Positions 16,082 to 53,210 are shown, counted from the first letter of the stretch. The stretch is 64,000 bases of DNA from Vulcanimicrobiota bacterium (GCA_963820825.1 CAWGBN010000006.1:416001-480000), one strand, 5' to 3'. Notes: generated by a model from the sequence alone, not told the origin. Numbers and translations are program-made.

Positions 16082-17944
16082 GTGCACATCGTCGGAACCG
16101 CCGGTCACGTCGACCACGGAAAGTCGGCGCTCATCGCCGCGCTCACCGGGACGAATCCCGACCGCTGGATCGAGGAGCAGATGCGGGGCATGACGCTCGA
16201 CCTTGGGTTCGCGCACCTTCGCTTCGACGACGGCATCGAAGGCGGCATCGTCGACGTGCCGGGACACGAGCGCTTCCTGCACAACATGCTTGCCGGCGCC
16301 GCCGGTATGGAACTGCTGCTGCTCGTAATCGACGCGAACGAAGGCGTGATGCCGCAGACGCTCGAGCACCTGCAGATCTTGCAGTTTCTCAACGTGCGGC
16401 GCGTGCTCGTCGCCGCGACGAAGATCGACCTGATCGCGCCGGCCGAGCGCGACGCGGCCTACGAGCGAATTCGCGAGCAGCTGCGCGAGACGATCGCAGC
16501 CGAAGCGCCGATCGTCGCCGTCTCCGCAGTGACCGGCGAGAATCTCGAGGCTCTTAAAGTCGCGCTGCATGACGAGCTGGCAGCCTTACCGCCGCGCAAC
16601 GTCAACGCGCCGGCCTACCTGCCGATCGATCGCGCGTTCGCGTTGCCCGGGCTCGGAACGATCGTCACCGGAACGCTGATGCAGGGCAGCGTCGCCGCCG
16701 GCGAGACGCTCGTCCTCGAACCGGGAGGCGCGCCGGCGCACGTTCGCAGCATCGGCGTCTTTGAATCGACTCGCAAACGAGTCGAGGCTGGGGCGCGGGT
16801 CGCGCTCAACCTGCCCGGAATCGATCGTGCCCAGCTCGTGCGCGGCCGAGCGATCGTCGGACGCGAGCTAAGTGCGATGCAGCATTTCGGCGTCCGTTTT
16901 ACGCCGCTGGAGAGCGCGCTTGGGTTCTTGCGGCGGCGCACGCCAGTGCGCGCCTACATCGGGTCGGCCGAGATTCTCGGCACGCTCGTCTTGCGCGAAG
17001 CGCTCGCCGGTGCGCGCGAGGTGCGCGCCGAGCTCTTGCTGCGCGAACCGGTCGTAGCCTTTCCGAATCTGCGCTTCGTGCTGCGTCGTCCGTCGCCGAT
17101 GACGCTGCTCGGCGGCGGCTACGTCGAGGGCGTCGAGCTCGCCGCAACGGCGGCCGGCCGTGATGCCGACGAAGAAGCGGTGCTGGCGGTTCTTCGCGAA
17201 AGAGGCCTCGAAGCGATCGAGCTTAGCACGATCGCGTTTGCTGCCAACCTCCGCGAACAAGCAGCGCGCGATGCCGCCGGCCGGCTCGTCGAGCAAGGAG
17301 AAGTGATTCGCGTGGCGCGGCCGACGGCATACGTCGACGCCGCCGCGGGAGCGGCGATGTTTTCACGCATGCTCGCACAACTCGAGGAGGCGCATCGCAG
17401 CGAACCGTGGGCGCTTGGAATGACCTCGATCGCGCTCGCGCGCGCGCTCGACGTGCCCGAGCCGACGCTCGTTCGCGTCGCCGAGCACTTCGTCGAGAGC
17501 GGCCGCCTCTCCAACCGGGGCGGATACTACGCGGCGATCGATCACCAACCGTCCTTCACGCCGGAGCAGGGGGTCTTCTTCGAGTATCTCGTTGCGGTCG
17601 ACGAGGCGCGCCCGTTTGCGCCGATTCCCTTTGCCGGCGCCGCTTCGGCGGTCAAGCTCTCGCAGGTGACCGGACTCGCGAAGGCTTTCGATACGATGCT
17701 CGCCCACGGCGCGTTCGTAAAGGTCGGCGACGATCTCTACCGTGGCACGCAGATCGCCCGGATTCGCGCCCGCGTCGAAGCGCATTTTCGGCTGCGCGAT
17801 CGCATGACGGCCTCGGAGTTTCGCGATATGCTCAAGACGTCGCGAAAGTACGCCGTGCCGCTGCTCGAGTGGCTCGACTCGCGCGGCGTGACGATCCGCG
17901 ACGGCGACTACCGGACGCTCAGACGGAAGGAGAACAACCGATGA
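16082..17944 (+). CDS. selB: Selenocysteine-specific elongation factor SelB
   Basis: GTAGHVDHGKS, RGMTLDLGF, DVPGHERF; C-terminal winged-helix SRKYAVPLLEWLD. Confidence 0.95.
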   Translation: MHIVGTAGHVDHGKSALIAALTGTNPDRWIEEQMRGMTLDLGFAHLRFDDGIEGGIVDVPGHERFLHNMLAGAAGMELLLLVIDANEGVMPQTLEHLQILQFLNVRRVLVAATKIDLIAPAERDAAYERIREQLRETIAAEAPIVAVSAVTGENLEALKVALHDELAALPPRNVNAPAYLPIDRAFALPGLGTIVTGTLMQGSVAAGETLVLEPGGAPAHVRSIGVFESTRKRVEAGARVALNLPGIDRAQLVRGRAIVGRELSAMQHFGVRFTPLESALGFLRRRTPVRAYIGSAEILGTLVLREALAGAREVRAELLLREPVVAFPNLRFVLRRPSPMTLLGGGYVEGVELAATAAGRDADEEAVLAVLRERGLEAIELSTIAFAANLREQAARDAAGRLVEQGEVIRVARPTAYVDAAAGAAMFSRMLAQLEEAHRSEPWALGMTSIALARALDVPEPTLVRVAEHFVESGRLSNRGGYYAAIDHQPSFTPEQGVFFEYLVAVDEARPFAPIPFAGAASAVKLSQVTGLAKAFDTMLAHGAFVKVGDDLYRGTQIARIRARVEAHFRLRDRMTASEFRDMLKTSRKYAVPLLEWLDSRGVTIRDGDYRTLRRKENNR

Positions 17945-27264: not shown

Positions 27265-29313
27265 ATGCTTGCTGCATTTACGCTCGCTCAGATTCTCAAC
27301 TACCCGTTTCCGGAGGCGCTCGTCGGCGACCAGCGGGGAACCGCGATCGCCTATACCCTCGTCCAGCAGGGAGTCCGAACGCTCTGGTTCGCGCGCTCGC
27401 CGCAGTGGGCACCGGTGCAGCTCTTTTCGTCGGGCGGCGACGACGGCCAAGAGATCAGCAACCTGGTCATCTCCAACGACGACGCCCACGTCGTCTACGT
27501 GCGCGGCGGCGACCACGACGCGAATTGGCCGCAGCCGTTGCAGCCCGGCCCGGCGGCGATGCCGCAGCAGCCCGAGATGCAGGTCTGGTCGATCGCGACG
27601 AACGGCGGCGCGCCCAAGCTGATCGGCGACGGCGACGCGCCCGCGATCTCGCCCGATGCAACGCGCGTCGCGTTTACCGCCGACGGCGCCGTGATGATCG
27701 CGCCGATCGATGGAAGCGTTGCCGCGAAGCGGCTCTTCTTCGATCGAGGGCAGGATTCGGATCTGCACTGGTCGCCGGACGGATCGGCCCTGGCGTTCGT
27801 ATCGGCGCGCACCGACCATAGCTTCATCGCGATCTATCGCAACGATCCAACCCCGCTCGACTTCATCGCGCCCACGACCTCGCAGGATTTCATGCCGCGC
27901 TGGTCGCCCGACGGCACGCGCGTTGCCTTCATTCGAATCCACGGCGACGGCGGAGCGCCGCAGAACCCGCTCGACTGGAATCCGACCCCGTGGGAGATTT
28001 GGGTCGGCGACGCGCGGGGCGCAGCGCAACGCGTTTGGTCGAGCGGCGATACGCCGCGTGCGTCTTTGCCGCAGAGCGCCGGCGGTCCGTTCTTGGAGTG
28101 GGCCGCGGGTGACCGGCTCGTCTTCAAGAGCGAACGAGACAACTGGCTGCATCTGTACGCCGTCGCAGCGAGCGGCGGAAGCGCGCGATTACTGACGCCC
28201 GGCGATTTCATGGTCGAAGACGTCTCGGTCGCGCCGGATCGAAACTCGATCGTCTACTCGGCGAATACCGGATCGACGGTTGGCGACGACGATCGGCGCC
28301 ACGTCTTCCGCGTCGACGTCGAGAGCGCAACGAACACGCCGCTGGCGATCGGTGCGAGCAGCGAGACGAATCCCGTCGCTTTAGCCGGCGGTGACGTCGC
28401 ATTCAATCGTGCGACGGCGCAGCAGCCGCTGCTCGTGACGTTGCTTTCGGGCGGCTCGCAGCGTGCGCTCGACGCAAATCTGCTTGCAAGCGACTTTCCC
28501 TCGTCGCAGCTCGTGACGCCGCAAGAGGTCTCGTTTCGCGCCGCGGACGGAACGTTGGTACACGGTCAGATCTTCGCGCCAAGCGGCGGCGGCAAACATC
28601 CGGGCATCGTCTTCGTGCACGGTGGTCCGGTGCGTCAGATGCTGCTGACCTGGCATTACATGGATTACTACTCGAACGCATACGCCGTGAATCAGTACCT
28701 GGCGAGCCGCGGATTCGTCGTGCTCGCGGTCAACTACCGGCTCGGAATCGGCTACGGCCACGACTTCAACTATCCGCCGCAGTGGGGGCCGACGGGTGCC
28801 TCGGAGTATCAAGACGTCGTCGCCGGCGCGCGCTTTCTCCAACGCGATTCCCGCGTCGATCCGAAACGCATCGGCATCTGGGGCGGTTCCTATGGCGGAT
28901 ACCTCACCGCGCTCGCCCTCGCGCGAAACTCCGACATCTTCAAGACCGGAGTAGACTACCACGGCGTTCACGACTGGTCGCTCGATATCGACAATCCGGT
29001 TTGGGGCTTCCAGCAGCTCAAGCGGTACCAGCAATACGACGCCAAAGCGATGATGAGGCTCGCTTGGGAATCGTCGCCCGATTCGGCGATCGCCACGTGG
29101 AAATCGCCGGTTTTGCTGATTCAAGGCGACGACGACCGCAACGTCGAGTTCCATCAAATGGTCGATCTCGTCGAGCGGCTGCGCGCCGCACATGTTCCCT
29201 TCGAGCAGATCGTGATCCCCAACGAAATTCACGGTTTTCTGCGGTACGAAGCGTGGCTGGAGGCCGATACGGCGACCGCCGAGTATCTCGCTCGCGAGTT
29301 CTCGGCCCGGTAA
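27265..29313 (+). CDS. S9 family peptidase (prolyl oligopeptidase/dipeptidyl peptidase clan) with PD40-type propeller
   Basis: WSPDG repeats; VHGGP; nucleophile GGSYGG; DDRNV Asp; EIHGF His. Confidence 0.9.
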   Translation: MLAAFTLAQILNYPFPEALVGDQRGTAIAYTLVQQGVRTLWFARSPQWAPVQLFSSGGDDGQEISNLVISNDDAHVVYVRGGDHDANWPQPLQPGPAAMPQQPEMQVWSIATNGGAPKLIGDGDAPAISPDATRVAFTADGAVMIAPIDGSVAAKRLFFDRGQDSDLHWSPDGSALAFVSARTDHSFIAIYRNDPTPLDFIAPTTSQDFMPRWSPDGTRVAFIRIHGDGGAPQNPLDWNPTPWEIWVGDARGAAQRVWSSGDTPRASLPQSAGGPFLEWAAGDRLVFKSERDNWLHLYAVAASGGSARLLTPGDFMVEDVSVAPDRNSIVYSANTGSTVGDDDRRHVFRVDVESATNTPLAIGASSETNPVALAGGDVAFNRATAQQPLLVTLLSGGSQRALDANLLASDFPSSQLVTPQEVSFRAADGTLVHGQIFAPSGGGKHPGIVFVHGGPVRQMLLTWHYMDYYSNAYAVNQYLASRGFVVLAVNYRLGIGYGHDFNYPPQWGPTGASEYQDVVAGARFLQRDSRVDPKRIGIWGGSYGGYLTALALARNSDIFKTGVDYHGVHDWSLDIDNPVWGFQQLKRYQQYDAKAMMRLAWESSPDSAIATWKSPVLLIQGDDDRNVEFHQMVDLVERLRAAHVPFEQIVIPNEIHGFLRYEAWLEADTATAEYLAREFSAR

Positions 29314-29385
29314 CTCACCGAGGGAATGCCGGGCGGGGGTCGCCTTCCACCCCGCGTTGAATCCAAATGCATGGCTGCGTATGGC

Positions 29386-30813
29386 ATGCGACGCATCGCC
29401 GTTGTCGCCGCCGCAACGGTCTGGTGCGTCTTGCGCACGGCGAACGCCGGCTCGGCACAACCGCTGACGCTGCAACAGACCGTCTCTTACGCAATGGGAC
29501 ACAATGCGACGATCGCGGCGAAGCACGCGGCGCTCGCGCAAGCGGAATCGAACTACACCCGCCAGCGCGCGACCGAATACCCGCCGGTCGTAGCGAGTCT
29601 GCAGAACCTTCTCGCCAAGCAGAATAACTACGCCGGTCCGTTAGCGCAATACGGAGTCGTCCCGGTTACGAACTTCTCGCAGAACACCGCGCAGGTCGGG
29701 ACGCAGTGGACGCTCTACAACGGATCGCTCAACCAGATCCTCACGCAACAGAACTACCGGCAAGTCGAAGCCGCGCGCGCCGACCTGCGGCAGACCCAGA
29801 TGGAGACGACCTCCAAGCTCGTAGCGATGTTCTTTGCGATTGCGAACTGGCAGCATCTGTACGATCTCGCGCAAGCAAATCTCGTCTATCAGCAGGCGTT
29901 GCTCGCCGTCGCGCAAGCGAAGGAGAAGGCCGGTCTGGTCGCCGGCGTCGACGTGCTGCGCGCCGAGGTCGGCGTCGACCAGACCCAGGTAGCCCTGCTC
30001 AACACGCAATCGGATCGCGAGACCGCGACCGAATCGCTCGCGCAGACAATCGGCGCCGGTCTCGAGACGACCTTCGCCGTCCCGTCGGTGCTGCCGCAGC
30101 CGCCGCTGCCGCCCGGAACGAATTCGGCGCTAGTCGAGATTGCCGAACGAAACCGCCCCGAGGTTGCCGCCGCGACCGCGAGCTTGGCGATCGCACAGCT
30201 TTCGCGCGCGAGCATCGATACCGATCTGCTGCCGCAGGTCAACGTCTACGCTTCCTTCGGCAACCAAACGTCGCCGACGAGCTACGTCGACGAGCAGACG
30301 CAGATCAATGCGCTCAACCAGGCCTGTGCGCCATATCCGAATCAGATCCAATGCATCGGCTTCCCGTTCGCGAACGTAACGCGCGGCACGCCGGGCTTCT
30401 GGAACATCGGTGCGACCTCGACCCTCTCGCTGCCGATCGTCGACTACGGCACGCGTGCCGCCGCGCACCGTTCGGCGAATCAATCGATTGAATCGGCGCA
30501 GCTCGCACTGGACTCGGCAAAGACGGCGACCCAAGAGGACGTCCTGCAATCGCTTCGGCAAGCGCAGACCGCGCGCGAGTCGCTCTCGTATCAGCAAGCG
30601 GCGGCGAAGCTGGGTGCCGAAGCGGCGCGGATTGCCCAGCTTCAGTACGACAGCGGGCTCATCTCGCTCACCGATACCAAGGCGGCGCAGGCGACCTCGC
30701 TCCAGGCGCAGGCCGATTCGTTCGGCGCGCAGATCGAATACATCAACGCCGTGGTCAAACTTCGCGCTGCGCTCGGAGCCTTCGATCCCATGGCGGCGGT
30801 TGCGGATCTCTGA
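29386..30813 (+). CDS. TolC family outer membrane efflux protein
   Basis: Signal peptide, LTLQQTVSYAM, AGLVAGVDVLRAEV, RPEV, QYDSGLISLTD repeat architecture. Start approximate. Confidence 0.85.
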   Translation: MRRIAVVAAATVWCVLRTANAGSAQPLTLQQTVSYAMGHNATIAAKHAALAQAESNYTRQRATEYPPVVASLQNLLAKQNNYAGPLAQYGVVPVTNFSQNTAQVGTQWTLYNGSLNQILTQQNYRQVEAARADLRQTQMETTSKLVAMFFAIANWQHLYDLAQANLVYQQALLAVAQAKEKAGLVAGVDVLRAEVGVDQTQVALLNTQSDRETATESLAQTIGAGLETTFAVPSVLPQPPLPPGTNSALVEIAERNRPEVAAATASLAIAQLSRASIDTDLLPQVNVYASFGNQTSPTSYVDEQTQINALNQACAPYPNQIQCIGFPFANVTRGTPGFWNIGATSTLSLPIVDYGTRAAAHRSANQSIESAQLALDSAKTATQEDVLQSLRQAQTARESLSYQQAAAKLGAEAARIAQLQYDSGLISLTDTKAAQATSLQAQADSFGAQIEYINAVVKLRAALGAFDPMAAVADL

Positions 30814-32309
30814 TGGATAATCGGCGCAAGGCAGCGATTGCAATCGGCGCGGTGCTTGCGCTCGCACTCGTCGTCGCGTTCTTCAATTTGCGCCGAGCGG
30901 CGCGCAGCGTGCCCGTTCTGACGGTCGGCTACGCGCCCTTCACCATCGGCTTGCCGGAGAGCGGCGTCATTCAATACCCTCAGATCCAGACGATATCGAG
31001 CCAGATCGCGGGCAACGTCGGGCGGATCTACGTTCGCATGGGCGACCGCGTCGTCGCCGGCCAGCTGCTCGCGACGCTTGAGAATCCGCAAGCGCTCGCC
31101 AACGCGCAGAGCACTGCGGCGGCGTACCGCTCCGCCGTCGCCAAAGCGGAGAGCGCTACCGTGACCGGTGGCTCGAACGTAGTGCAGGCGCAAGCGAATC
31201 TCGCGACGGCGCGAGCGCGGCTCGTCCAGGCGCAGCAAGACCTCGCCAACGGCGTGCAGTCCGGACTCGGCTACGGCGAGACGACCGCCGCGAATGAGAT
31301 CGCCGCGGCCGACGCGAACCTGCTCACCGCCTCGACGAATCTCCGCGAAGCGCGCCGCATCTATTTCGCCTACCGCGGTCTCTACGCCAACAAAGCCGTC
31401 TCGCACGATCAGCTCGATCAAACCGAGGCGAAGTACGAAGAGGCGCAGGCGCAGTACGATCAAGCGCGTTCCGCGCGCGCGGCGCTCGGCTCGCAGTTGA
31501 CGGGTTCGAAGGCGGTGCTTGAGGGAAACCTCCGCTCCGCACGCGAGGGCTACGCGCAGGCGCAGGCGCAACTGGCGGCCGCGCAGGTGGAGTCGGGCAG
31601 CGGCGACGTCGCGGCAGCGCGCGCTGAGGCGGAGCGCGCCGGCTCGGAGTATGCGCTCGCGCGCGAGCAGGCCGATGCGATGCACATTCACGCACCGTAC
31701 GATGCGACCGTCTTGAGCGTTGCATCGGAGAAGAACGATCCGCTTCGGCCGCTGCAGTCCGGCGACGCGGTCGAAGCGGGGCAGCCGCTCTTGACGCTCG
31801 CTGGCCAGCGCGGATTCGTGGTGCGCACGCGCGTCGACGAGCAGGATATCGTCGGCGTTGCACTCGGGCAGCGCGTGCAGATTAGCGGCGACGACTTTCC
31901 GGGACGCTCGCTGACCGGCCGCGTCGTCGAGATCTCCCCGATCGCTCAGCGCTCGGGCGATGCGGCGGCCTCGGCGCGTACCGTCGCGACGACGATCGCG
32001 ATCGACCGGCCGCCGCCGTTCCTGCGCGATGGAATGAGCGCCGAGATCACGATTCTCACCACCGATCTTCCCCGCGCGATCGCCGTTCCCGACCGGGCGA
32101 TCGGACGCGACGGTGCGGGAGCGTACGTCTACGTCGTGACGGGTGGAAGCGCGCACCGCCGGCCGGTGCGCGCTGGCGCGGCAACCGAAACGGCGACGGT
32201 GATCGAATCGGGGCTGCGCCCGGGCGACGTGATCGTCGCGCGCGACGTCAGCGGATTGCACGACGGCGATCGTGTCGTGGGCGCCACGCCCGATACGGGA
32301 CGTCCGTGA
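30813..32309 (+). CDS. Periplasmic adaptor (HlyD/MacA-type membrane fusion protein) with long alpha-hairpin
   Basis: N-terminal TM, VRMGDRVVAGQLL lipoyl half, long Ala/Gln coiled coil, IHAPYDA, VDEQDI, LRDGMSA, SGLRPGD. Confidence 0.88.
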   Translation: MDNRRKAAIAIGAVLALALVVAFFNLRRAARSVPVLTVGYAPFTIGLPESGVIQYPQIQTISSQIAGNVGRIYVRMGDRVVAGQLLATLENPQALANAQSTAAAYRSAVAKAESATVTGGSNVVQAQANLATARARLVQAQQDLANGVQSGLGYGETTAANEIAAADANLLTASTNLREARRIYFAYRGLYANKAVSHDQLDQTEAKYEEAQAQYDQARSARAALGSQLTGSKAVLEGNLRSAREGYAQAQAQLAAAQVESGSGDVAAARAEAERAGSEYALAREQADAMHIHAPYDATVLSVASEKNDPLRPLQSGDAVEAGQPLLTLAGQRGFVVRTRVDEQDIVGVALGQRVQISGDDFPGRSLTGRVVEISPIAQRSGDAAASARTVATTIAIDRPPPFLRDGMSAEITILTTDLPRAIAVPDRAIGRDGAGAYVYVVTGGSAHRRPVRAGAATETATVIESGLRPGDVIVARDVSGLHDGDRVVGATPDTGRP

Positions 32310-33142
32310 ACACGCCCGAACGGCCCGGCGGAAGCGGGCTTTTTCGCGAGCGCGCGATCGAATCGATCGATTCGGTCGAACGATTCGATGAAGCGATCGA
32401 CGTCGTCTCGTCGCATAGCGTCTTCGCGCTCGCCGCGATCGGCGCGCTGCTCTTCTGCGCACTGGTCTGGGCGATCTTCGGACGCGTTCCCGTCGGTCTG
32501 CAGGGGCGCGGCGTCATCGTCGCCGGAAGCGGCGTCCAACCCGTCGTCGCTCCGGCCGAGGGCACGTTGATCGCGCTGCCGGGTCAGGTCGGCGCTCCGG
32601 TCGCGCAAGGCGCCGCGATCGCGCGCATGCGCACGACCGCCGGCGAGATCGTCGCGCTGCGCGCGCCCGCCGCCGGACGGCTCGCGCAGCGTTCGCCGCA
32701 ACTCGGAAGCTTCGTTCGCGCCGGCGACGCGGTCGCGACGATCGAGCCCGTCGCGGCGAGTCCGACCGCCGTGCTCTTCGTTCCGGTCGAGACCGACCGT
32801 CGCGTCGCCGCAGGGATGCCGGTGCGCTTATCTCCCGCCGACGCGCGCCCCGATGTCTTCGGCTTTCTGCGGGGACACGTGACGTACGCCGCGCCGTTTC
32901 CGGCGAGTCCGGATCGCGTGCGAGCGGCCCTGCAGAACGACGCCGTCGCATCGGGGTTCTCGCCGGATACGCCGGTTCGTGAAGTACACGTCGCGCTCGA
33001 CGTGGACGCGCAAGGAGATCTGATCTGGTCGGGCCTGCGAAACTCCGGACGCGCGCTCTCGCCCGGCACCCCGTGCTACGCGACGATCGTCGTCGAGCAA
33101 CGGGCACCCATCTCGTTCGTGCTGCCGCAAACGCAAGAATGA
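32306..33142 (+). CDS. NHLM/NHLP bacteriocin system secretion protein (short HlyD-like)
   Basis: LFRERAIESIDSVERFD N-terminus, WAIFGRVP, FGFLRGHV, GTPCYATIVVEQRAPISFVLP C-terminus. Confidence 0.85.
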   Translation: MNTPERPGGSGLFRERAIESIDSVERFDEAIDVVSSHSVFALAAIGALLFCALVWAIFGRVPVGLQGRGVIVAGSGVQPVVAPAEGTLIALPGQVGAPVAQGAAIARMRTTAGEIVALRAPAAGRLAQRSPQLGSFVRAGDAVATIEPVAASPTAVLFVPVETDRRVAAGMPVRLSPADARPDVFGFLRGHVTYAAPFPASPDRVRAALQNDAVASGFSPDTPVREVHVALDVDAQGDLIWSGLRNSGRALSPGTPCYATIVVEQRAPISFVLPQTQE

Positions 33143-35283
33143 GCGCCGCCATCCCATTGGTGCGCACGCCGACGGTGCTGCAGATGGAGGCCGTCGAGTG
33201 CGGCGCCGCATCGCTGGGAATGATTCTGGGTTATTACGGCCGTCACGTTCCGCTCGAGGTGCTGCGCGATGCCTGCGGCGTTACGCGCGACGGAAGTTCG
33301 GCGGGCAACCTCTTGCGCGCGGCGCGAGCCTACGGCCTCGAGGCGCACGGCTATAAGTACGATATCGCCGAGCTCCGCGCGCTCGCCCCGCCGTTCATCG
33401 TCTTTTGGCAGTTCTATCATTTCGTCGTCGTCGAGGGCTTTACCAAAGACGGCGCGATGCTCAACGATCCGGCCGGCGGCCGGCGCCTCTGCGACTGGGA
33501 GGAGTTCGACCGATCGTATACCGGTGTATGCTTGGCCTTTGCGCCCGGTCCGAGCTTCACGCCGAGCAACGACGTTCCGGCAACGGCGAGCATTCTACGC
33601 GCGCAGCTGACCGGTTCGTGGGGAGCGGTGCTCTTCGTCGTCATCGCGGGGCTGGCGTTGGTCGTGCCGAGCATCGCCTTGCCGACCTTCACCAAGACGT
33701 TCATCGACGAAGTGATGGTCGGAAAGAGTTACGGCTGGGTCTTTTGGATCGGCGTGGGGATCATCGTCAGCATCGCACTGCAAGCCGGATTGCTCGAACT
33801 CCAGCAGCAAGCGATTCTGAGACTTCAAGCGAAGCTCGCGCTTGCAAACGCGAGCCGCATGCTCTGGCACTGCCTGCGCCTGCCGATGACGTTCTTCGCG
33901 CAGCGCTCCCCCGCCGAGGTCGCCAACCGCGTCGCGATCTGCGATCGCGTTGCGGAACTGCTCTCGAGCCGGTTCGCCGCAAGCGCGATCGGCGTGGTCG
34001 CGGCGCTCTTCTATCTCGCTTTGATGGCGTGGTACGATCGCGTGCTCGCCCTCATCTCGCTCGCCATCGCCGCGCTCAACATACTCGCGCTGCGATTCGT
34101 GGCGCGCCAGCGCTCCGACGCAAATGCGACCCTGCTCCAAGAGGAAGCGATGCTGCTGGGTGCATCGGTCTCGGGGTTGGAGCGGATCGAGCTGCTCAAG
34201 GCCGGCGGCGCCGAGAGCACGTTTCTGATGAAATGGCTCGGACGCCAAGCGCGAGTGATCAACGCGCGGCAGCGTTTCGCGGTTCCGTCGCAAGTGCTCT
34301 ACGCGGTGCCGAGGCTCCTCATCACGATCAATATCACCGCGATCCTCGTGATCGGCGGTCTGCGGGTGATCGAGGGCGCCATTTCGATCGGCACGCTCTT
34401 TGCCTACGCGCTCTTGATGCAACTCTTCGTCGCGCCTTTTACCACCTTCGTCGAGCTCGGTGCCGATTTACAGGAGATGGACGGGGACGTACGCCGCATC
34501 GAGGACGTACTGCGCTATCCGCTGCCGCCGGCGCCGGCGATCGAGCGGATGAAACGAATCCGTCTCAGCGGAAAGCTCGAGCTGCGCGACGTCTCGTTCG
34601 GCTACAACCGGCAGATGCCGCCGGTCGTTGCCGACATTTCGTTCGTGATCGCACCCGGGCGGCGGATCGCTCTGGTCGGTCCGTCGGGCAGCGGAAAATC
34701 GACGATTGCCAAAATCGTCTCCGGGCTCTTCACGCCGTGGTCGGGAGGCGTCTTCTTCGACGGCGTCGAGCGCGAGGCCATCGATCCGTCGCTGCTGGCG
34801 ACCGACGTCGCCTTCGTCGATCAAGAGATCTCGCTCTATCCGGGAACGGTGCGCAGCAATCTAACACTCTGGGATCCGGAGATCTCCGATGCAGCCGTCG
34901 AGCGCGCCGCTCGCGATGCCTTCATTCACGCCGACGTCGCGGCGCGGCCGGGCGGATACGAAGCGCCGATGGCCGAGGGCGGAATCAACTTTAGCGCGGG
35001 CCAACGCCAGCGACTCGAGATAGCTCGGGCATTGGTGCGCGATCCCGCTCTCGTCGTTCTCGACGAGGCGACGAGCGCGCTCGACCCGCTCACCGAGTAT
35101 CTCATCGACGAGAGTCTGCGGCGGCGCGGATGCGCCTGCCTGATCATCGCGCACCGGTTGAGCACGATACGCGATGCCGACGAAATTCTAGTGCTCGACG
35201 CCGGGCGAATCGTCGAGCGCGGCACGCACGACGAGCTCCTCGCTCGCGGGGGCCGCTATCTCGCGCTGGTGAGATCGCAGTGA
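33139..35283 (+). CDS. NHLM bacteriocin system ABC transporter, C39 peptidase/ATP-binding protein
   Basis: RTPTVLQMEAVECGAASL (catalytic Cys), HFVVVEG (His), NDPA (Asp); TM domain; GPSGSGKS; FSAGQRQRLEIARAL; LDEATSALD. ATGA overlap sets the start at 33139. Confidence 0.93.
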   Translation: MSAAIPLVRTPTVLQMEAVECGAASLGMILGYYGRHVPLEVLRDACGVTRDGSSAGNLLRAARAYGLEAHGYKYDIAELRALAPPFIVFWQFYHFVVVEGFTKDGAMLNDPAGGRRLCDWEEFDRSYTGVCLAFAPGPSFTPSNDVPATASILRAQLTGSWGAVLFVVIAGLALVVPSIALPTFTKTFIDEVMVGKSYGWVFWIGVGIIVSIALQAGLLELQQQAILRLQAKLALANASRMLWHCLRLPMTFFAQRSPAEVANRVAICDRVAELLSSRFAASAIGVVAALFYLALMAWYDRVLALISLAIAALNILALRFVARQRSDANATLLQEEAMLLGASVSGLERIELLKAGGAESTFLMKWLGRQARVINARQRFAVPSQVLYAVPRLLITINITAILVIGGLRVIEGAISIGTLFAYALLMQLFVAPFTTFVELGADLQEMDGDVRRIEDVLRYPLPPAPAIERMKRIRLSGKLELRDVSFGYNRQMPPVVADISFVIAPGRRIALVGPSGSGKSTIAKIVSGLFTPWSGGVFFDGVEREAIDPSLLATDVAFVDQEISLYPGTVRSNLTLWDPEISDAAVERAARDAFIHADVAARPGGYEAPMAEGGINFSAGQRQRLEIARALVRDPALVVLDEATSALDPLTEYLIDESLRRRGCACLIIAHRLSTIRDADEILVLDAGRIVERGTHDELLARGGRYLALVRSQ

Positions 35284-38120
35284 TGCGCGCGAACGAGATC
35301 CGAATTGCCGGCGACGATCTGCTCGTGCTGGCAAACGGGAGAGATGCGTATTGCGTGCGCTCCGGCGAGGCCGCGATCTTCGCCGTCGCCCTCGGCACCG
35401 ACGGGAAACCGGTCGGGCGCCGCTCGTTTATCGGCGGTGCGGGTCCGGGCGAGGTCGTGCTCGGCGCCTCGTTCGAATCGAAAGGCGCGACGTTCGCGCT
35501 CATCGCGGTCGGAGTGGAACCGACGATCTTGGAGCCGTGGGATCCGGCGCACGCCGAGCCGGAACAACGCGATGAGGCGCTTCGGCGGTATCTCACCATG
35601 TTAGTCGGGCGCGATCGAATCGAGATCGACCAGCACAAGGCGCGTCCCGTGCAACCACATCAGGAACTCGAGCTCGCCGCCGGCGAGTACGCGCGCTCGT
35701 CGCATCGTCTGGCGTACGTGCGCGTGGCCGGCGGCACAGCCTATCTGCTCGGCGTGCACCAGTGCGATTCCGGCTCGGGCATCGTTCCGGTTGGGGGCGC
35801 GCTGACGCTGCACGCTCGAAACGGCGCGCGCGTCGAAGCGCTCGCCAACTCGGACGTGAGCGAGAAGGATCTCGAGCAGGCGCTCGATACGGCGCGTGCC
35901 GCGTTTTGGAAACACTGGGCGATGCATGCGGAGCAAGAGGACCACGACCGCGAAGCGATGCGCGCAGCGACGCAGGCTTTCGACGCGCGCGCCCTTGCGA
36001 GCGGGCTCGAGGAGGCAACGCACCTCTTCGAGCGCCACCGGCCGCTGACCAATGCCGGGGACGATCCCATCGTCGCTGCGGCGCGCATCGCCGCGCAAGC
36101 CGATCGGATCGCGATCGCCGCGCCGCGCGAATCGCATAGCGACCTGCAGGGCGCGGTGCAGGCAATCGCCGTGGAATCGCACGTCTCGGTTCGCCGCGTG
36201 CGCCTTCGCGGGAACTGGCACGAGCGCGAGTACGGCCCACTCCTTGCATTTCGCGGACCGCGTCGCACGCCGGTTGCGCTGCTCCCGCATCGTGGCCGAA
36301 CGCGATACGTTCTGGTCGATCCGGCGCGAGTCACCGAGCAGATTCCCGTCGACGAAGTGGTAGCGGATCAGATCGACTCGTTCGCCTACGTCTTTATGCG
36401 GGCGCTTCCGGAACGCGCCGTCGGCGTTTGGGATCTCCTGCGATTCGGATTGCGTCACAGCGGCGTCGATGCAATTCAGATTCTGACGCTCGGACTCGCC
36501 GGAGGCATTCTTGCCGGCGCCGTTCCCTTGGCGACCGCGATTCTGTACGGTACGATCATTCCCGGAGCGATGCGCCCGCAGTTGCTGACGATGATGCTGG
36601 CGCTGCTCGCGATCGCATTGACCGCCGCGGTAACCGAGGCGGTGCGCGGCCTGGCGATCGTGCGCCTGCAAACGCACGTCGGTATGACCCTGCAATCGGC
36701 GGTGATGGAGCGGCTGCTCTCGCTACCGGCCGCGTTCTTCCGGCGATACGAAATCGGCGATCTCGCCGACCGGCTGATGGGCGTCGATCGAATCGAAGAG
36801 TACGTCAGCGATATCACGATCTCGGCGGCGCTGAGCGGGGTCTTCTCGCTGGTGAGCTTCGCGCTGCTCTTCATCTACGACGTCGGCCTCGCGTGGCTCT
36901 GCGCGTTCCTGGCGCTCATCGCAATCGGGGCCGCCGTTACCGAGGCGCTCGCAACGCTCCCGCTGCGGCGTAAGATCTTCGATCGCTACGGCGGCATCGC
37001 CGGCTTCGTCTTGCAGATCTTCAACGGGATCGCCAAGCTGCGTATCGCGCAAGCCGAGACGCGCGCCTTCGTAGGCTGGCTACATCGCTTCGTTGCGATG
37101 CGCCGTTTGACGACGCGGGTCGGCACGATCGTCTACCGCTTCGGAATCTTCAACGCCATTTGGCCTGCCGCGACGACCCTCGCGATCATTTGGTACATCT
37201 TCGTCGTCCGCCACGGTGCTTTCGCGGCGAGTACGTTCATTGCCGCAAGCGCCGCGTTCGGACAGCTTTTGGCGTCGTTGCTCGGCCTCGGCGACGCGCT
37301 GGTCGCCGTGATTCGCGTGATCCCCGTCTACGAGCGTGCCGAGCCGCTGTTGCGCGAGCTTCCCGAGCGCCTTCAGGCACACGGCGATCCGGGAACGCTG
37401 ACCGGCGCGATCGAGCTGCGCAACATGAGCTTTCAGTACGAAGAGGCTCCGGTCGTGACGCTCGACCGGGTGGATCTACGGATCGAGCCCGGCTCTTTCG
37501 TCGCGATCGTCGGGCCGTCGGGGGCGGGGAAATCGACGCTCTTCCGGCTGCTGCTCGGCTTCGAACGGCCCAATCACGGCGCCATCTATTACGACGGGCA
37601 CGATCTGGACTCGGTCGATCTCGCCGCAGTGCGCCGGCAGATCGGTTCGGTCTTGCAGACGGCCGGGGCGCTGCAAGGGACGATCTTCGAGAATATCGCC
37701 GGCGCGCGCTACATAACGCACGACCAGGCGTGGGATGCCGCACGGCGCGTTGGAATCGCCCACGACATCGAAGCGTTGCCGATGCAGCTCGAAACCTATT
37801 TGGGTTCCGACGGCGGAGGGCTCTCGATGGGTCAACGGCAACGCATTGCAATTGCTCGCGCAATCGTCACGTCGCCACGGATCTTACTCTTCGACGAGGC
37901 GACGAGCGCGCTCGATAATGAGACCCAGGCGATGGTGATGAAGACGCTCGAAGCGCTTCACGCCACTCGCCTGGTGATCGCGCACCGTCTTTCGACGATT
38001 CAAAACGCGGACCGGATCATCGTGATCGATGGGGGCCGGATCGTGCAGGACGGGATCTACTCGAATCTCGTTGCAACGGCCGGCCCATTTGCCGATCTTG
38101 CCCGGAGGCAATCAATCTAG
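35283..38120 (+). CDS. NHLM bacteriocin system ABC transporter, ATP-binding protein (no peptidase motif)
   Basis: cNMP-like N-terminus, RRVRLRGNW...GPLLAF degenerate domain, TM domain, GPSGAGKS, LSMGQRQR, FDEATSALDN. Confidence 0.9.
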   Translation: MRANEIRIAGDDLLVLANGRDAYCVRSGEAAIFAVALGTDGKPVGRRSFIGGAGPGEVVLGASFESKGATFALIAVGVEPTILEPWDPAHAEPEQRDEALRRYLTMLVGRDRIEIDQHKARPVQPHQELELAAGEYARSSHRLAYVRVAGGTAYLLGVHQCDSGSGIVPVGGALTLHARNGARVEALANSDVSEKDLEQALDTARAAFWKHWAMHAEQEDHDREAMRAATQAFDARALASGLEEATHLFERHRPLTNAGDDPIVAAARIAAQADRIAIAAPRESHSDLQGAVQAIAVESHVSVRRVRLRGNWHEREYGPLLAFRGPRRTPVALLPHRGRTRYVLVDPARVTEQIPVDEVVADQIDSFAYVFMRALPERAVGVWDLLRFGLRHSGVDAIQILTLGLAGGILAGAVPLATAILYGTIIPGAMRPQLLTMMLALLAIALTAAVTEAVRGLAIVRLQTHVGMTLQSAVMERLLSLPAAFFRRYEIGDLADRLMGVDRIEEYVSDITISAALSGVFSLVSFALLFIYDVGLAWLCAFLALIAIGAAVTEALATLPLRRKIFDRYGGIAGFVLQIFNGIAKLRIAQAETRAFVGWLHRFVAMRRLTTRVGTIVYRFGIFNAIWPAATTLAIIWYIFVVRHGAFAASTFIAASAAFGQLLASLLGLGDALVAVIRVIPVYERAEPLLRELPERLQAHGDPGTLTGAIELRNMSFQYEEAPVVTLDRVDLRIEPGSFVAIVGPSGAGKSTLFRLLLGFERPNHGAIYYDGHDLDSVDLAAVRRQIGSVLQTAGALQGTIFENIAGARYITHDQAWDAARRVGIAHDIEALPMQLETYLGSDGGGLSMGQRQRIAIARAIVTSPRILLFDEATSALDNETQAMVMKTLEALHATRLVIAHRLSTIQNADRIIVIDGGRIVQDGIYSNLVATAGPFADLARRQSI

Positions 38121-38126
38121 AGGGAT

Positions 38127-38288
38127 CTACATCGGCTCCGGGTGCTTGAGCGGGTTCTGCGGGGGCCGCGGTCCGCCCGGAGGGTTCGGGCCATCGATCG
38201 GGCTCTTGACTTTCACGTAGCCGCCGCTGACCTGGTCGAGCTTCTCGTCTTCGATTGGCTTCTGCTCTTTACGAGTGTCGTCGCTCAT
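38127..38288 (-). CDS. Double-glycine leader precursor peptide with a 30-aa proline-rich core
   Basis: AAGGA RBS before ATG at 38288. MSDDTRKEQKPIEDEKLDQVSGG|YVKVKSPIDGPNPPGGPRPPQNPLKHPEPM fits the L(S/T)xxELxxVxGG leader consensus. Stop lies 6 bp from the ABC gene stop. Confidence 0.85.
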   Translation of the reverse strand: MSDDTRKEQKPIEDEKLDQVSGGYVKVKSPIDGPNPPGGPRPPQNPLKHPEPM

Positions 38289-38305
38289 TATGAGTTCCTT
38301 CTTCA

Positions 38306-38345
38306 GAGGCCGCGGCACAACCGCCGTGGCACCCTCAGAGTACCA
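38306..38345 (-). promoter_or_regulatory. Putative extended -10 promoter and 5' stem-loop of the precursor gene
   Basis: Minus strand TGGTACTCT (38345-38337) followed by GAGggtGCCACGGC-ggttgt-GCCGCGGCCTC hairpin just upstream of the RBS. Confidence 0.4.
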
Positions 38346-38425
38346 ATGAAGTGTGAATCGCAGGCGAAGCATTTGCGAAGTAAACGAGCGAGTTAGCGGA
38401 AAACCTTCTCAGGATCTGCACAATT

Positions 38426-40264
<1,839 letters not shown>

Positions 40265-50983: not shown

Positions 50984-52438
50984 TCAACGTCGATGAGGCG
51001 ATCCAGGCTGCCCTGGCAAAGCTGACTTAAACCGAGAATCGGAAAAAATCGGCAATCCGTCCGCGGTGGACGCAGTCGAACGGTAGCACTTTAACAAAAA
51101 CCTATAATGTAAGCATCTTTGAAAACTATGGGAGTGTACGGGTCTGGTGGCTCGCACGGTCTTCAAAATCGCTGAGGTCGCCGCAAGGCGACTGGTAGGT
51201 TCGATTCCTACACGCTCCCGCCAAGAAGCCTTGATTTTCTTAGGGGTTTTCGCTCGTCGAGGATGCCTCGGTTGCAGAACGGTTGCAGAAGTATTTAAGG
51301 CGAGCTTCGAAGGGACGCTTTGGACGCGCTCGACCGCCTCCGCTTGCGCGCCTTCTAGTTCGTGGGTGTAGACCGCTAGCGTCGTGCTCGGCGTCGAGTG
51401 CCGCAGGATCGCGGCGACGGTCGTAACGTCGACGCCAGCGCGCACCAGCCAAGAACCGGTTGAATGGCGGATGCCGTGAAGATTGCGCAGGGAAAGGCCC
51501 GCGCGCCTTGCGATCTTATGTACCGCGTCGTAAACGGCACCGGGCGAATACATGCCGCCTCCCGCAGGAGCGAAAACAAAGCCCTCGTCGTCATAGAACG
51601 GCCCCGCAGCGCGCTTGTCGCTCGCCTGCAGCGCGTGTTGCGCTCGGAGAGCAGCGATCGCATTTTCGGAAAGCGCGATGCGTGCGACGAGATGTGTCTT
51701 CGTATCTTTGAGCCACTTACGGCCGGGGACATAGGCCACCGAGTTTTGAATGGTGGCGTAGCGTTCTTCGAAGGCTACGTCGTCCCAACGAAGCCCAGCG
51801 AGCTCTCCGCGACGCAGGCCCGTTTCGAAAGCGAATACGACCATCGGCCCGTAGCGCGTCTTCGACGCTTCGCTGATAAGCCGCCCTGCCTCGGCCCGCT
51901 CATAGTGGCGTGTGGGCTTCTTGCCGACTTGCGGCGCGGAGGCGCGTCGACGGCGAGAGCGTGCGACGGCAGCCACATTGCGCGCGATGAGTTCATGCTC
52001 GACGCCCCACGCTAAGAGCGCAGAAACGAGTGCAAGCGTGTTGCGAACGGATCGCGGCGACAATGGGCCGGCCCCGCCGCTCCAACCTTTGCTGACCAGG
52101 TCCGTGCGCAGTTGCGCTAGGTGAAGCGGCTTCAGCTTCGCGAGCTTGATTGTGGCGATTGTCTCGCAACGGCGAAACGTTTCGCGGTATCCGCGCAGAG
52201 TCGTCTCGGATAGTCCATCCGCTGTGGCCTCGGCCATGTACGCGGCAAAAACCTCGGCGAGCGTAAGCGTCTTAGCCACAAGGTCCGTTCCGCGATCGCG
52301 CGCCGTTAGTGCTTCACGTTCGGCCTTCTCGGCCTCTTTCCGCGTGGAGAAGGTGCCCAGGCTACGCCTCTCTACTGAGCCTTCGGCCCTGGCGAGGACG
52401 ACGGTATAGCGCCCACTCTTGCGCTTGTAGATGCTCAT
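50984..52438 (-). CDS. Tyrosine recombinase/integrase; ORF continues antisense through selC
   Basis: Arm-binding-like N-terminus MSIYKRKSGRY; catalytic TGLRRGEL, HGIRH, LRHS, TLAVY. Confidence 0.92.
   Translation of the reverse strand: MSIYKRKSGRYTVVLARAEGSVERRSLGTFSTRKEAEKAEREALTARDRGTDLVAKTLTLAEVFAAYMAEATADGLSETTLRGYRETFRRCETIATIKLAKLKPLHLAQLRTDLVSKGWSGGAGPLSPRSVRNTLALVSALLAWGVEHELIARNVAAVARSRRRRASAPQVGKKPTRHYERAEAGRLISEASKTRYGPMVVFAFETGLRRGELAGLRWDDVAFEERYATIQNSVAYVPGRKWLKDTKTHLVARIALSENAIAALRAQHALQASDKRAAGPFYDDEGFVFAPAGGGMYSPGAVYDAVHKIARRAGLSLRNLHGIRHSTGSWLVRAGVDVTTVAAILRHSTPSTTLAVYTHELEGAQAEAVERVQSVPSKLALNTSATVLQPRHPRRAKTPKKIKASWRERVGIEPTSRLAATSAILKTVRATRPVHSHSFQRCLHYRFLLKCYRSTASTADGLPIFSDSRFKSALPGQPGSPHRR
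51130..51223 (+). tRNA. selC: tRNA-Sec (anticodon UCA)
   Basis: 8-bp acceptor stem GGGAGTGT/ACGCTCCC plus GCCA; 6-bp D stem CGGGTC-TGGT-GGCTCG; loop CTTCAAA; long variable arm GTCGCC-GCAA-GGCGAC; T arm GTAGG-TTCGATT-CCTAC. selA and selB are in the same window. Confidence 0.93.
51269..51290 (+). repeat. Tandem 11-bp direct repeat, candidate integrase arm-type sites
   Basis: CGGTTGCAGAA twice, 46 bp downstream of the tRNA CCA, after an AT-rich CCTTGATTTTCTTAGGGG stretch. Confidence 0.6.
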
Positions 52439-52487
52439 TCAGGGGCCCCGCTGGACAGTAACTGAACAGAAAAAAGAACACCTGCGC

Positions 52488-53144
52488 TCATTCAGGGCCC
52501 TCCGCTTTGAGGATACGAGAAACGGTCATGCTGCTGGCACCGACCTCTGCGGCGATCGCACGAAGGGTTAGTCCACGCTCGCGCGCGTTGAGGATTGACT
52601 CTCGGATTGCATCGCGGTTCTCCTTGCCGCGTTCCCTCATCGTCGCGGCGCCGTTGCGTGATCCGCGCGCGCGGCCGTCGTCGGTCAGGTTCTGCGGGTT
52701 GCCGAGCTTCTTGCCGCGCGCCTTTGCCTGTGCCAGAGCGGCCTTCGTCCGCTCGCTGATCTTAAGCGCCTCGTTCTCCGCGAAGGTCGCCCGGACGTGT
52801 AACATCATCGCGTCATCGTCCGGCGCGTCGACGCAGGCGAACGCGACGCGCTGTTTGATTAGGCCCGAGACGAAGTGAACGTCGCGCGAGAGACGGTCTA
52901 GCTTGGCGATGACGACGACACCGCGGATGCGGCGAGCCTTGGCGAATGCTTTCGCAAGCTCGGTGCGATCGGTGCGCTTACCCGATTCGACCTCGGTAAA
53001 CGACGAGTCGAGCGTCAGACCGCGCATCGCACAGAACGCCTCGACGGCTGCCTGCTGCGCGTCGAGCCCGAGCCCGCTGTGCCCTTGCTTTTGGGTGCTA
53101 ACTCGGTAGTAGGCGACTGCGATCGGGCGGTCAAAGTTCATCAT
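52488..53144 (-). CDS. Small serine recombinase (resolvase/invertase family) with C-terminal HTH
   Basis: AYYRVSTQKQ catalytic Ser, ESG, KLDRLSR, ISERTKAALAQAKARGKKLG, TLRAIAAEVG. Confidence 0.92.
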   Translation of the reverse strand: MMNFDRPIAVAYYRVSTQKQGHSGLGLDAQQAAVEAFCAMRGLTLDSSFTEVESGKRTDRTELAKAFAKARRIRGVVVIAKLDRLSRDVHFVSGLIKQRVAFACVDAPDDDAMMLHVRATFAENEALKISERTKAALAQAKARGKKLGNPQNLTDDGRARGSRNGAATMRERGKENRDAIRESILNARERGLTLRAIAAEVGASSMTVSRILKAEGPE

Positions 53145-53151
53145 GCACATA

Positions 53152-53193
53152 TTGTACCATAACCTTAGACGTTCGTTCAAGGTATTGGGACAA
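53152..53193 (-). promoter_or_regulatory. res-like inverted repeat overlapping the resolvase promoter
   Basis: TTGTACCATAACCTT-N12-AAGGTATTGGGACAA (12/15 arm match). The minus strand has TTGAAC-N18-TACAAT with extended TG, ending 6 nt before the ATG. Confidence 0.65.
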
Positions 53194-53210
53194 GCCACTA
53201 GAAACCGGTA

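Follow-up and report, generated by a model that had tools for sequence, protein, structure and literature searches.

We analyzed a stretch of 64,000 nucleotides, here called the window, which originates from a soil bacterium of the lineage Ca. Cybelea (Eremiobacterota, an uncultured phylum). The initial annotation described the interval 27265..38345 as five translationally coupled genes beginning with TolC. The five export genes were indeed present, but position 27265 is the start of an S9 peptidase gene, which had been missed, and the TolC-like gene begins only at 29326. Therefore the interval contains six plus-strand genes, not five. The features of the locus are as follows:

27265..29313 (+), S9 (prolyl-oligopeptidase-family) peptidase, 682 aa, flank of the island and outside the system (PF00326, E 2.7e-37)
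29326..30813 (+), TolC-like outer-membrane factor (PF02321 OEP, E 1.7e-35; TIGR01844/01845 matches below cut-offs)
30813..32309 (+), full-length periplasmic adaptor of the HlyD/MacA/RND_mfp type (TIGR01730, 151 bits, above the cut-off of 94.9; HlyD_3, HlyD_D23)
32306..33142 (+), short NHLM-type HlyD, 278 aa (TIGR03794, 145.8 bits, below the cut-off of 156.2)
33139..35283 (+), ABC1, a PCAT with C39 peptidase, permease and ATPase (TIGR03796, 949.4 bits, above the cut-off of 853.3)
35283..38120 (+), ABC2, permease/ATPase without peptidase domain (TIGR03797, 772.2 bits, above the cut-off of 709.4)
38288-38127 (-), precursor ORF, 53 aa
38220..38288 (-), precursor leader, 23 aa ending VSGG, with Val-4, Leu-7 and Ile-12
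38127..38219 (-), precursor core, 30 aa and stop codon, 10 Pro, net charge +2
38296..38330 (-), 5' UTR as predicted, containing a small conserved GC hairpin (CGGC-n6-GCCG) and the Shine-Dalgarno sequence AAGGA
38337..38379 (-), putative promoter, with direct TTC repeats at 11-nt spacing and, after them, an extended -10 (TGnTAnnnT)

All four junctions of the five export genes overlap (in order: TGATG, GTGA, ATGA, TGATG). The true start of the TolC-like gene may be a later Met, which precedes a signal-peptide-like stretch. Two of the three NHLM-defining proteins, ABC1 and ABC2, scored above the curated cut-offs, while the HlyD protein missed its own. Judged by these profile matches, the cassette is of the NHLM type on the strength of both ABC subunits, as had been proposed. 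The short HlyD matched the 421-position TIGR03794 model best at positions 244-418, with the middle of the model unmatched, and its N-terminus matched positions 2-78 of TIGR01843. This length is conserved in all 9 related loci. The C39 domain of ABC1 aligned with LahT150 (6mpz, E 8e-43), and Cys21, His94 and Asp110 of ABC1 fell on Cys27, His101 and Asp117 of LahT150, the residues described as its catalytic triad (PMC6363468). These residues were invariant in 14 of 14 homologues, so the earlier statement that Cys, His and Asp are intact held.

The small gene is convergent with ABC2, and the TAG of ABC2 and the stop of the small gene lie 6 bases apart (AGGGAT). On its other side the gene is flanked by 137 bp of intergenic DNA. 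Its sequence and composition were exactly as first quoted: the core has a single Ser and neither Cys nor Thr, is 33% proline and carries one PRP motif. The coding evidence indicates that this is a real gene and no chance ORF, because homologues of the peptide exist (66-78% identical), 91 representative clusters of a 1.84-billion-protein library share the conserved leader, and synonymous differences exceed non-synonymous ones over the 13 codons that precede the cleavage site (73 and 38, respectively, summed over the 21 pairs of 7 genes). The initial annotation had made its proposal depend on such conservation. LahT150 needs hydrophobic leader residues at -4, -7 and -12 (PMC6363468). The leader analyzed here ends with Gly-Gly, its residues at these three positions are hydrophobic, and its gene is linked to a C39-ABC with an intact triad.

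We observed that the leader is better conserved than the core (mean pairwise identity over 28 family members 0.70 and 0.42, respectively) and that it is 19-24 aa long throughout the family. The cores are hydrophilic peptides close to neutral in charge. In the 89 cores of the family, net charge had a median of 0, with 37 cores net negative and only 4 at +4 or more; PRP was present in 11 and Cys in 5 (0.3% of residues). In the subfamily to which the window's peptide belongs, an YV.EHNP-like N-terminal start of the core and a C-terminal P-x end are conserved.

We compared the distribution of the peptide with that of ABC1 in 91 genomes of the window's own genus (Ca. Cybelea), which are not independent samples. 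All 23 ABC1-positive genomes carried the peptide family, while it was found in only 2 of 68 ABC1-negative ones (65% and 77% complete); one of these two, G093, has a divergent cassette with the C39 region out of frame. The initial annotation had suggested that synteny of cassette and precursor be examined. In 22 of the 23 genomes a peptide gene lies 2.6-3.0 kb beyond the ABC1 match, directly behind ABC2. Synteny and co-occurrence thus link the peptide to the cassette, and it is a true, conserved precursor of the double-glycine type. The suggestion that the exporter may also serve precursors dispersed in the genome was not supported for the window's own genome (85% complete), where the family profile detected a single copy; relatives have up to 12 dispersed family copies per genome. 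Of 116 genera sampled from Eremiobacterota, an uncultured phylum of soil and peat, 3 contain the family. It is previously undescribed, and we found no account of a proline-rich double-glycine bacterial peptide of such kind in the full-text literature.

The cassette shares with NHLP/Nif11 cassettes, as described by Haft et al. 2010 (PMC2887384), the paired ABC subunits, of which only one has C39, the HlyD-like partner, the Gly-Gly cargo, the hypervariable core and multi-copy paralogues in relatives. It differs from them in its Pro-rich, Cys-poor cores with no linked cyclodehydratase or LanM, in the shortened HlyD that falls below the cut-off, and in the full-length adaptor and TolC-like gene added to the operon. 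The leaders described there have about 70-83 aa, as compared with 23 aa here, and the NHLP/Nif11 leader models (TIGR03793, TIGR03798) gave no match in the window's genome (85% complete), although the controls for these models were weak, matching in 0 and 1 of 14 genomes. With prochlorosin-type processing by LahT/LahT150 the system has in common the C39 triad and the hydrophobic residues at -4, -7 and -12; LahT (PMC6363468) serves LanM-modified lanthipeptide precursors, whose synthetase is absent here. NHLM-type cassettes have so far been tied to long-leader, heavily modified precursors. Here such machinery is paired with lineage-restricted, minimal-leader, proline-rich and Cys-poor peptides, and no tailoring enzyme was found with them.

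The export of double-glycine peptides by C39-ABC transporters is well documented. Class II microcins (colicin V, exported by CvaAB-TolC) and the pheromones ComC and BlpC are unmodified double-glycine cargo of PCATs. They share with the peptide the short GG leader, the lack of modification (probable for the peptide) and, in diderms, the combination of C39-ABC, adaptor and TolC. Microcins are Gly/Ala/Ser-rich, hydrophobic and accompanied by an immunity gene, and pheromones by a two-component sensor. The locus has neither immunity gene nor two-component sensor, and the core is hydrophilic and one-third proline.

The cassette and the peptide gene form an island inserted in the interval between S9 and TypA. 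Among five cassette-free genomes checked, four carried S9 at 77-79% identity and in three S9 and TypA abut directly; therefore we consider S9 a part of the backbone and not a tailoring enzyme. S9 would have been the obvious candidate for such an enzyme. It lies on the same strand 12 bp 5' of the TolC-like ORF, and its substrate class would fit a proline-rich peptide, which it might process or cyclise like POP-type macrocyclases of eukaryotic RiPPs. Synteny largely refuted this: besides the retention of S9 without the cassette, 3.5-6.5 kb of other genes separate S9 from TolC in four of the five cassette loci showing S9, it was not within reach in three further loci extending upstream of TolC, and ClpB, upstream of S9, is spaced from it just as tightly (9 bp). 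A role of S9 in processing the core is thus extremely improbable. Pfam scans of 42 ORFs in the window detected no YcaO, LanM/LanC or radical SAM enzyme, which agrees with the initial annotation. We also found no tailoring enzyme among 14 extra island ORFs of relatives or among 38 ORFs beside dispersed family copies, and the pairing of homologous cassettes with tailoring enzymes, named beforehand as an argument against the proposal, was not observed. The genome-wide search covered six candidate families, of which the LanC-like one was uninformative since its control matched nowhere; the search gave no match to YcaO, MNIO or 2OG-FeII_Oxy_3 in the window's genome, and the sole SPASM protein was PqqE, inside a pqqD-E-B cluster. 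Since this genome is 85% complete and six families were queried, there is room for an unlinked or unfamiliar tailoring enzyme. The peptide would then be a RiPP precursor modified by an enzyme encoded elsewhere or from an unrecognised family; NHLP/Nif11 precursors often lie far from their enzymes in this way. NHLM-cassette substrates with far-away modification genes are described by Haft et al. 2010 (PMC2887384), and the conserved core start and P-x end could be enzyme recognition sites. However, nearly the whole leader is a protease recognition motif, while the leaders of NHLP and N11P are given there as 83 aa and 70 aa on average, and neither a long enzyme-recruiting leader nor a linked enzyme was present. 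The cores are without the usual modifiable residues, and no enzyme was seen repeatedly, whether in the islands or next to dispersed copies. We regard this explanation as rather unlikely.

The reading that we favor, with moderate confidence, is that an unmodified peptide is cleaved after Gly-Gly and exported by the adjacent five-gene cassette, for which it is the only cargo detected. The peptide gene would be driven by its own promoter (11-nt-spaced TTC repeats and extended -10), probably under stress or starvation. The short leader, barely more than the 13-residue C39 recognition motif, would dock on the C39 domain of ABC1, which, by homology with LahT150, is expected to cut after Gly-Gly. Gene content suggests that the linear unmodified 30-residue core would exit through the ABC1/ABC2 pair, the two adaptors and the TolC-like channel. 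Outside, the hydrophilic and presumably protease-resistant peptide would act on other cells. This constitutes a defined cargo-exporter pair, open to heterologous testing. If the peptide is bioactive, it offers a protease-resistant linear scaffold easy to synthesise; if no activity is detectable, the annotation of an unnamed peptide family would still be useful.

Export might additionally be gated at ABC2. In the AF2 model (pLDDT 78) the N-terminal ~190 residues of ABC2 fold into two beta-barrels similar to cyclic-nucleotide-binding domains in tandem, and PKA regulatory subunits were the top Foldseek matches (E 7e-6, prob 0.99-1.0, TM only ~0.2). No Pfam match was found in this region, and the putative CNB-like assignment comes from a medium-confidence model with low TM-scores and has no sequence-level support. 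Gating by a nucleotide second messenger is speculative; the model indicates a possible nucleotide-gated partner subunit of a PCAT. A nucleotide-binding domain on a PCAT has precedent, because the cNMP domain of HetC from Nostoc PCC 7120 binds ppGpp and is required in vivo (PMC10986499). Both are PCAT-family ABC exporters with an N-terminal domain of the cyclic-nucleotide-binding type, but in HetC the domain is Pfam-recognised and sits on the peptidase-bearing subunit, whereas here two barrels, a predicted fold only, belong to the peptidase-less ABC2.

As to the role of the exported peptide, strain-level interference by a receptor-mediated, non-lytic route and some other function are both realistic possibilities that we hold tentatively, and signalling is a slightly weaker one. 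No immunity gene was found at the locus, where the non-coding DNA on the two sides of the peptide gene measures only 6 bp and 137 bp, and this weakens a bacteriocin role; the locus resembles those of class II bacteriocins and microcins in that no tailoring enzyme was found, but not in having a dedicated immunity gene beside the structural gene. Likewise, no receptor gene was found at the locus in the window, which weakens signalling. A specific version of the latter is that a PCAT-exported cell-cell or stress signal is sensed by TPR-STAND proteins, some with adenylate-cyclase domains, and feeds back on ABC2. Of 21 related loci from the genome collection, 9 have a gene for a cyclase-STAND-TPR protein of ~900 aa beside the cassette (L044-L047, L049-L051, L053, L054). 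The predicted CNB-like folds on ABC2, the missing immunity gene, the hydrophilic, near-neutral cores and the stress-associated type of promoter would fit as well. PCAT-exported pheromones such as ComC and BlpC are a known kind, and a ComC cluster was among the distant named ESM-Atlas look-alikes, with a weak score of 0.81. However, in the window no such sensor lies beside the cassette, and the STAND-TPR family is hugely expanded in the genome (28 matches), so the sensor gene may adjoin the cassette by coincidence or through common descent. A signal would not usually exist as up to 12 scattered, hypervariable paralogues per genome that lack paired receptors, and cytoplasmic STAND proteins would require re-import of the peptide. 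We consider this version unlikely. A still more far-reaching proposal, a self-contained peptide circuit of a kind undescribed in diderms, with a PCAT heterodimer nucleotide-gated at ABC2, TPR-STAND cyclases as readers and a stress/dormancy regulon, seems quite improbable.

The initial annotation compared the core with apidaecin. Apidaecin, oncocin and Bac7 are animal proline-rich antimicrobial peptides, and a strong cationic character is central to them. A bacterial counterpart would enter its target cells and block their ribosomes. The family resembles these peptides in its richness in proline and in a PRP that appears now and then, the window's core being one-third proline with a single PRP motif, and a few family members are Arg/Pro-rich, with the four cores of net charge at least +4 mentioned above. 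However, the window's core is only +2 and the family is neutral on average, with many negative cores and PRP in a minority; neither is strongly cationic and Arg/Pro-rich, and the full-text searches yielded no bacterial precedent of this kind. The apidaecin analogy is therefore weak, and such an activity very improbable for this core. What stood of the original proposal is the probable export of an unmodified proline-rich peptide: the precursor is tied to the cassette and no tailoring enzyme accompanies it. A bold and quite improbable reading would be that the family includes the first bacterial equivalents of proline-rich peptides that target the ribosome.

Finally, we looked at the region upstream of the peptide gene. 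The hairpin of the 5' UTR was read by eye from the upstream alignment. The promoter columns were invariant in 10 of 10 aligned upstream regions, and a generic sigma-70 scan found no promoter at the site. The pattern, which was derived from the peptide genes themselves, occurred at 12 sites of the genome, all upstream of ORFs, as compared with 0-1 in five shuffles. It was missing upstream of 30 of 55 family genes, including cassette-adjacent copies of the commonest core type. In the window's genome the same motif precedes genes of Usp, Hsp20, BON-domain, PfkB, PEP-synthase and phosphoesterase proteins; therefore expression of the peptide gene is probably induced by stress or starvation. For organisms that have so far not been cultivated, this gives a candidate motif of a stress regulon.

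We analyzed the interval 27265-38120, which the initial annotation had described as a run of five export genes. All five were recovered, but the gene count was not, as the interval holds six plus-strand genes and the first of them encodes an S9-family peptidase.

Genes of the export cassette and its flank (coordinates, strand, assignment and support)
27265-29313, plus strand: Peptidase_S9 / prolyl-oligopeptidase-family protein, 682 aa (PF00326, E 2.7e-37)
29326-30813, plus strand: TolC-like outer-membrane factor (PF02321)
30813-32309, plus strand: full-length HlyD/MacA-type adaptor (TIGR01730, 151 bits)
32306-33142, plus strand: short NHLM-type HlyD, 278 aa against 421 model positions (TIGR03794, 145.8 bits, below the 156.2 cut-off)
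33139-35283, plus strand: C39-ABC protein, ABC1 (TIGR03796, 949.4 bits, cut-off 853.3)
35283-38120, plus strand: peptidase-less ABC protein, ABC2 (TIGR03797, 772.2 bits, cut-off 709.4)
38288-38127, minus strand: small peptide gene, convergent with the cassette (translation)

The export genes overlap at all four junctions (TGATG, GTGA, ATGA and TGATG), and six bases separate the last ABC stop codon from that of the small gene, as had been reported. ClpB lies upstream on the cassette strand and TypA/BipA downstream on the peptide strand (Pfam scan). The C39 domain matched LahT150 (6mpz) at E 8e-43. Its Cys21, His94 and Asp110, previously described as intact, aligned with the catalytic Cys27, His101 and Asp117 of LahT150 and were invariant in 14 of 14 homologues. 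In one related genome (L060:10001-10450) the C39 region of ABC1 is out of frame for approximately 80 residues, which is a frameshift or an assembly error; this cassette is still trailed by two family peptides. The NHLM-type HlyD (32306-33142) lacks the middle third of the family model, and a full-length second adaptor is encoded just upstream. This pairing was kept in all nine related loci examined.

Translation of the small gene (38288-38127, minus strand) gives exactly the proposed 53-aa peptide, and homologues, a family profile and codon differences support it as a real, conserved gene. A word-indexed search with the peptide found three homologues with 66-78% identity. A profile built from 28 members (alignment A1) detected 91 representative clusters at E <= 0.001 among 1.84 billion proteins, and seven of them scored 1e-10 or better. 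The leader form MSD-x-K...DEELDKVSGG is common to all family members, and mean pairwise identity is higher in the leader (0.70) than in the core (0.42). Seven genes of the window's subfamily were compared over the 13 codons that precede the cleavage site, and synonymous differences (73) exceeded non-synonymous ones (38). The ATG is preceded by an AAGGA Shine-Dalgarno sequence within a conserved upstream region. No Pfam or NCBIfam model covered the family in scans of the window ORFs and the family peptides; four different NCBIfam leader-type models each matched one of the 28 peptides, all below cut-off. The nearest ESM-Atlas clusters carried no names (scores of 0.89 or less).

The window leader carries Val-4, Leu-7 and Ile-12. 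LahT150 places leader positions -4, -7 and -12 in a hydrophobic groove, and 13 residues suffice for its recognition (PMC6363468). The window leader barely exceeds this length, which would leave little room for an enzyme-recruiting element.

Related loci were gathered with the ABC1 protein as query, which was 78-92% identical in MAGs of Candidatus Eremiobacteraeota / Vulcanimicrobiota and Candidatus Cybelea sp. In a sample of 401 genomes from across the phylum, the peptide profile matched 25, which belong to 3 of the 116 genera and to a single family. Among 91 genomes of the genus, including the window's own, the peptide family was found in 25 and C39-ABC in 23 (22 above cut-off, one cut by a contig end). 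The peptide was present in 23 of 23 ABC1-positive genomes and in 2 of 68 ABC1-negative ones, although such counts overstate independence, because the genomes are kin. The latter two are 65% and 77% complete, and one of them (G093) has a divergent cassette with the C39 region out of frame. Cassette and precursor were syntenic: in 22 of 23 genomes a peptide gene lies 2.6-3.0 kb past the ABC1 match, directly behind ABC2, and the one exception is a fragmented assembly. The suggestion that related precursors may be dispersed in the same genome was not supported: in this 85% complete genome, both the single-peptide search and the family profile matched only the window copy; the sole other match (E 0.4) fell inside a 191-aa frame. 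Dispersed copies of relatives sit among housekeeping genes. In two related loci (L031, L040) inserted peptide-family genes separate the aldehyde dehydrogenase gene from SelA; the window has both of these genes but no such insert.

In ten upstream regions of window-type peptide genes, TTC repeats with a spacing of 11 nt were invariant; an extended -10 (TGnTAnnnT), a small GC hairpin and a Shine-Dalgarno sequence were likewise common to all ten. A generic sigma-70/terminator scan of 37900-38700 gave no promoters and three weak terminator-like sites, none of them useful. The pattern TTC.C-n6-TTC.C-n10-TA...T, which was derived from the peptide genes themselves, occurred at 12 sites in the window's own genome and at 0, 1, 0, 0 and 0 in five local shuffles. 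All 12 sites were 6-114 nt upstream of an ORF in sense orientation. Besides the peptide, these ORFs encode two phosphoesterase-family lipoproteins, PEP synthase/PPDK, a tandem Usp, Hsp20, a BON-domain protein, a PfkB kinase, a DLH-like hydrolase and three unknowns. We infer that the motif marks a stress or starvation promoter class, and the 12 genes may form a stress or dormancy regulon. Among 55 distinct family genes from the fetched loci, 25 had a relaxed form of the motif upstream. It was missing from those copies of the commonest core type that adjoin the cassette. Eight of the 12 motif copies lie within 80 kb of contig C8 (C8:397216-473577), and the rest at four other sites.

Approximately 260 residues of ABC2 precede its TIGR03797 match, and sequence searches of this N-terminus gave no Pfam or PDB match. 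Residues 1-316 were modelled with AF2 from a 15-sequence alignment (pLDDT 78); the model has two beta-barrels, each with a helix behind it. In Foldseek it came closest to the tandem cyclic-nucleotide-binding domains found in regulatory subunits of PKA (E 7e-6, probability 0.99-1.0), with TM-scores of only about 0.2. For this reason we treat the resemblance of the two predicted barrels (35283-35870) to such domains as a lead rather than an assignment. There is a precedent for a nucleotide-binding domain on a PCAT: HetC of Nostoc has a cNMP-type domain that binds ppGpp and is needed in vivo (PMC10986499). In two related loci (L056, L058) the ABC2 N-terminal match begins only at residues ~208-218, so these loci may lack the first barrel or have a divergent one.

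The account that we find best supported, and consider rather probable, is that of a stress-induced double-glycine peptide exported without modification. Expression of the peptide gene would be induced by stress and its product would stay unmodified; the C39 domain of ABC1 would cut the precursor after GG, and the peptide would be expelled via ABC1/ABC2, the two adaptors and the TolC-like channel. A tailoring enzyme unlinked to the cassette, processing by the S9 peptidase and action like that of proline-rich antimicrobial peptides (PrAMPs) are all less likely. The earlier statement that the window encodes no modifying enzyme held, as Pfam scans of its 42 ORFs revealed no RiPP enzyme; nor was one found among 14 ORFs from additional island DNA in relatives or 38 ORFs around dispersed peptide copies. 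The own genome, which is 85% complete, yielded no YcaO, MNIO/DUF692 or 2OG-FeII_Oxy_3, and its single SPASM protein is PqqE (510.9 bits vs 381.35), inside a pqqD-E-B cluster. The NHLP and Nif11 leader models had no match in this genome, with weak controls, and the control of the LanC-like search matched nowhere. We regard an unlinked enzyme as unlikely. Synteny led us to reject the S9 peptidase as a tailoring enzyme. In related loci the cassette and peptide genes lie between S9 and TypA. Four of five cassette-free genomes have S9 (77-79% identity), abutting TypA in three (18, 18 and 258 bp apart) and 6.3 kb from it in the fourth. Where the cassette is present, S9 was found in 5 of 8 fetched loci reaching upstream of TolC, and in four of these five 3.5-6.5 kb of other genes separate S9 from TolC. 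S9 is therefore a backbone gene by the insertion site rather than a partner of the peptide, and its involvement in processing is highly improbable.

Several core types exist in the family. Proline made up 22% of the residues in the 89 representative cores, glycine 11%, threonine, arginine and isoleucine 7% each, and cysteine 0.3% (median length 34 residues, median GRAVY -0.85); a minority of the cores were not rich in proline at all. The commonest type has the conserved pattern HP.P.DPIRP..PPTHP...NPVG; a single genome has as many as 12 copies, and many of these are dispersed. A handful of relatives share the window's type, which has a YV.EHNP-like start and a P-x end. The likeness to apidaecin initially proposed is weak for the family: the window core has a net charge of +2, but the median over the family is 0, with a negative net charge in 37 of 89 cores and +4 or more in four, and PRP occurs in only 11 of 89. 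Proline content is thus the sole ground of the analogy, and we consider PrAMP-like action very unlikely. Outside the cell the peptide may act in more than one way. In its patchy distribution, its place on an island, its hypervariable cores and its paralogues in multiple copies, the family is reminiscent of bacteriocin or prochlorosin-like libraries. A role as a signal would be favoured by the missing immunity gene, the neutral, hydrophilic composition and the promoter class. It would also be favoured by cyclase-STAND-TPR genes, which adjoin the cassette in 9 of 21 related loci from the genome collection, but this argument is weakened by the size of that gene family, with 28 matches in the own genome.

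A GG peptide with a PCAT-type exporter is an already known kind of system. What appears new is the cargo family and the fact that it is paired with a tailoring-free NHLM-type cassette, as well as an operon of five genes in which a truncated HlyD accompanies a second adaptor, and the CNB-like partner subunit. Full-text searches on topics including Eremiobacterota bacteriocins, proline-rich GG peptides, bacterial PrAMPs and proline-rich cargo of PCATs returned no description of the family.

Several further observations were made. Insertions seem to recur at the S9-TypA junction, where the cassette-free genome G014 has 6.3 kb of DNA. S9 peptidases are numerous in the own genome; two more follow the pqqD-pqqE-pqqB cluster (C8:156508-162956, L062). 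In seven related loci (L044, L045, L049, L050, L051, L053 and L054), at locus positions ~4.4-5.9 kb and upstream of TolC, there is a second double-glycine peptide family, with a long basic/acidic leader ending in RVSGG or RVTGG and a Gly/Asn/Ser/Trp-containing core. Its gene, absent from the window, immediately follows a ~900-aa adenylate-cyclase-STAND-TPR gene at the cassette head. STAND-TPR proteins are encoded at 28 places in the own 3-Mb genome, for instance just past the window end (C6:482344-487543); some have an N-terminal cyclase domain, and at least 12 are near-full-length paralogues. SelA and SelB (3853-5187 and 16082-17944) are both encoded in the window, and the organism therefore has selenocysteine machinery. 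A phage-type integrase, a resolvase, an HTH protein and a primase/AAA_25 protein lie in a row at 50984-55810, followed at 56000-62000 by DNA with a G+C of 0.52-0.58 compared with ~0.64 elsewhere; these features probably mark an integrated mobile element.
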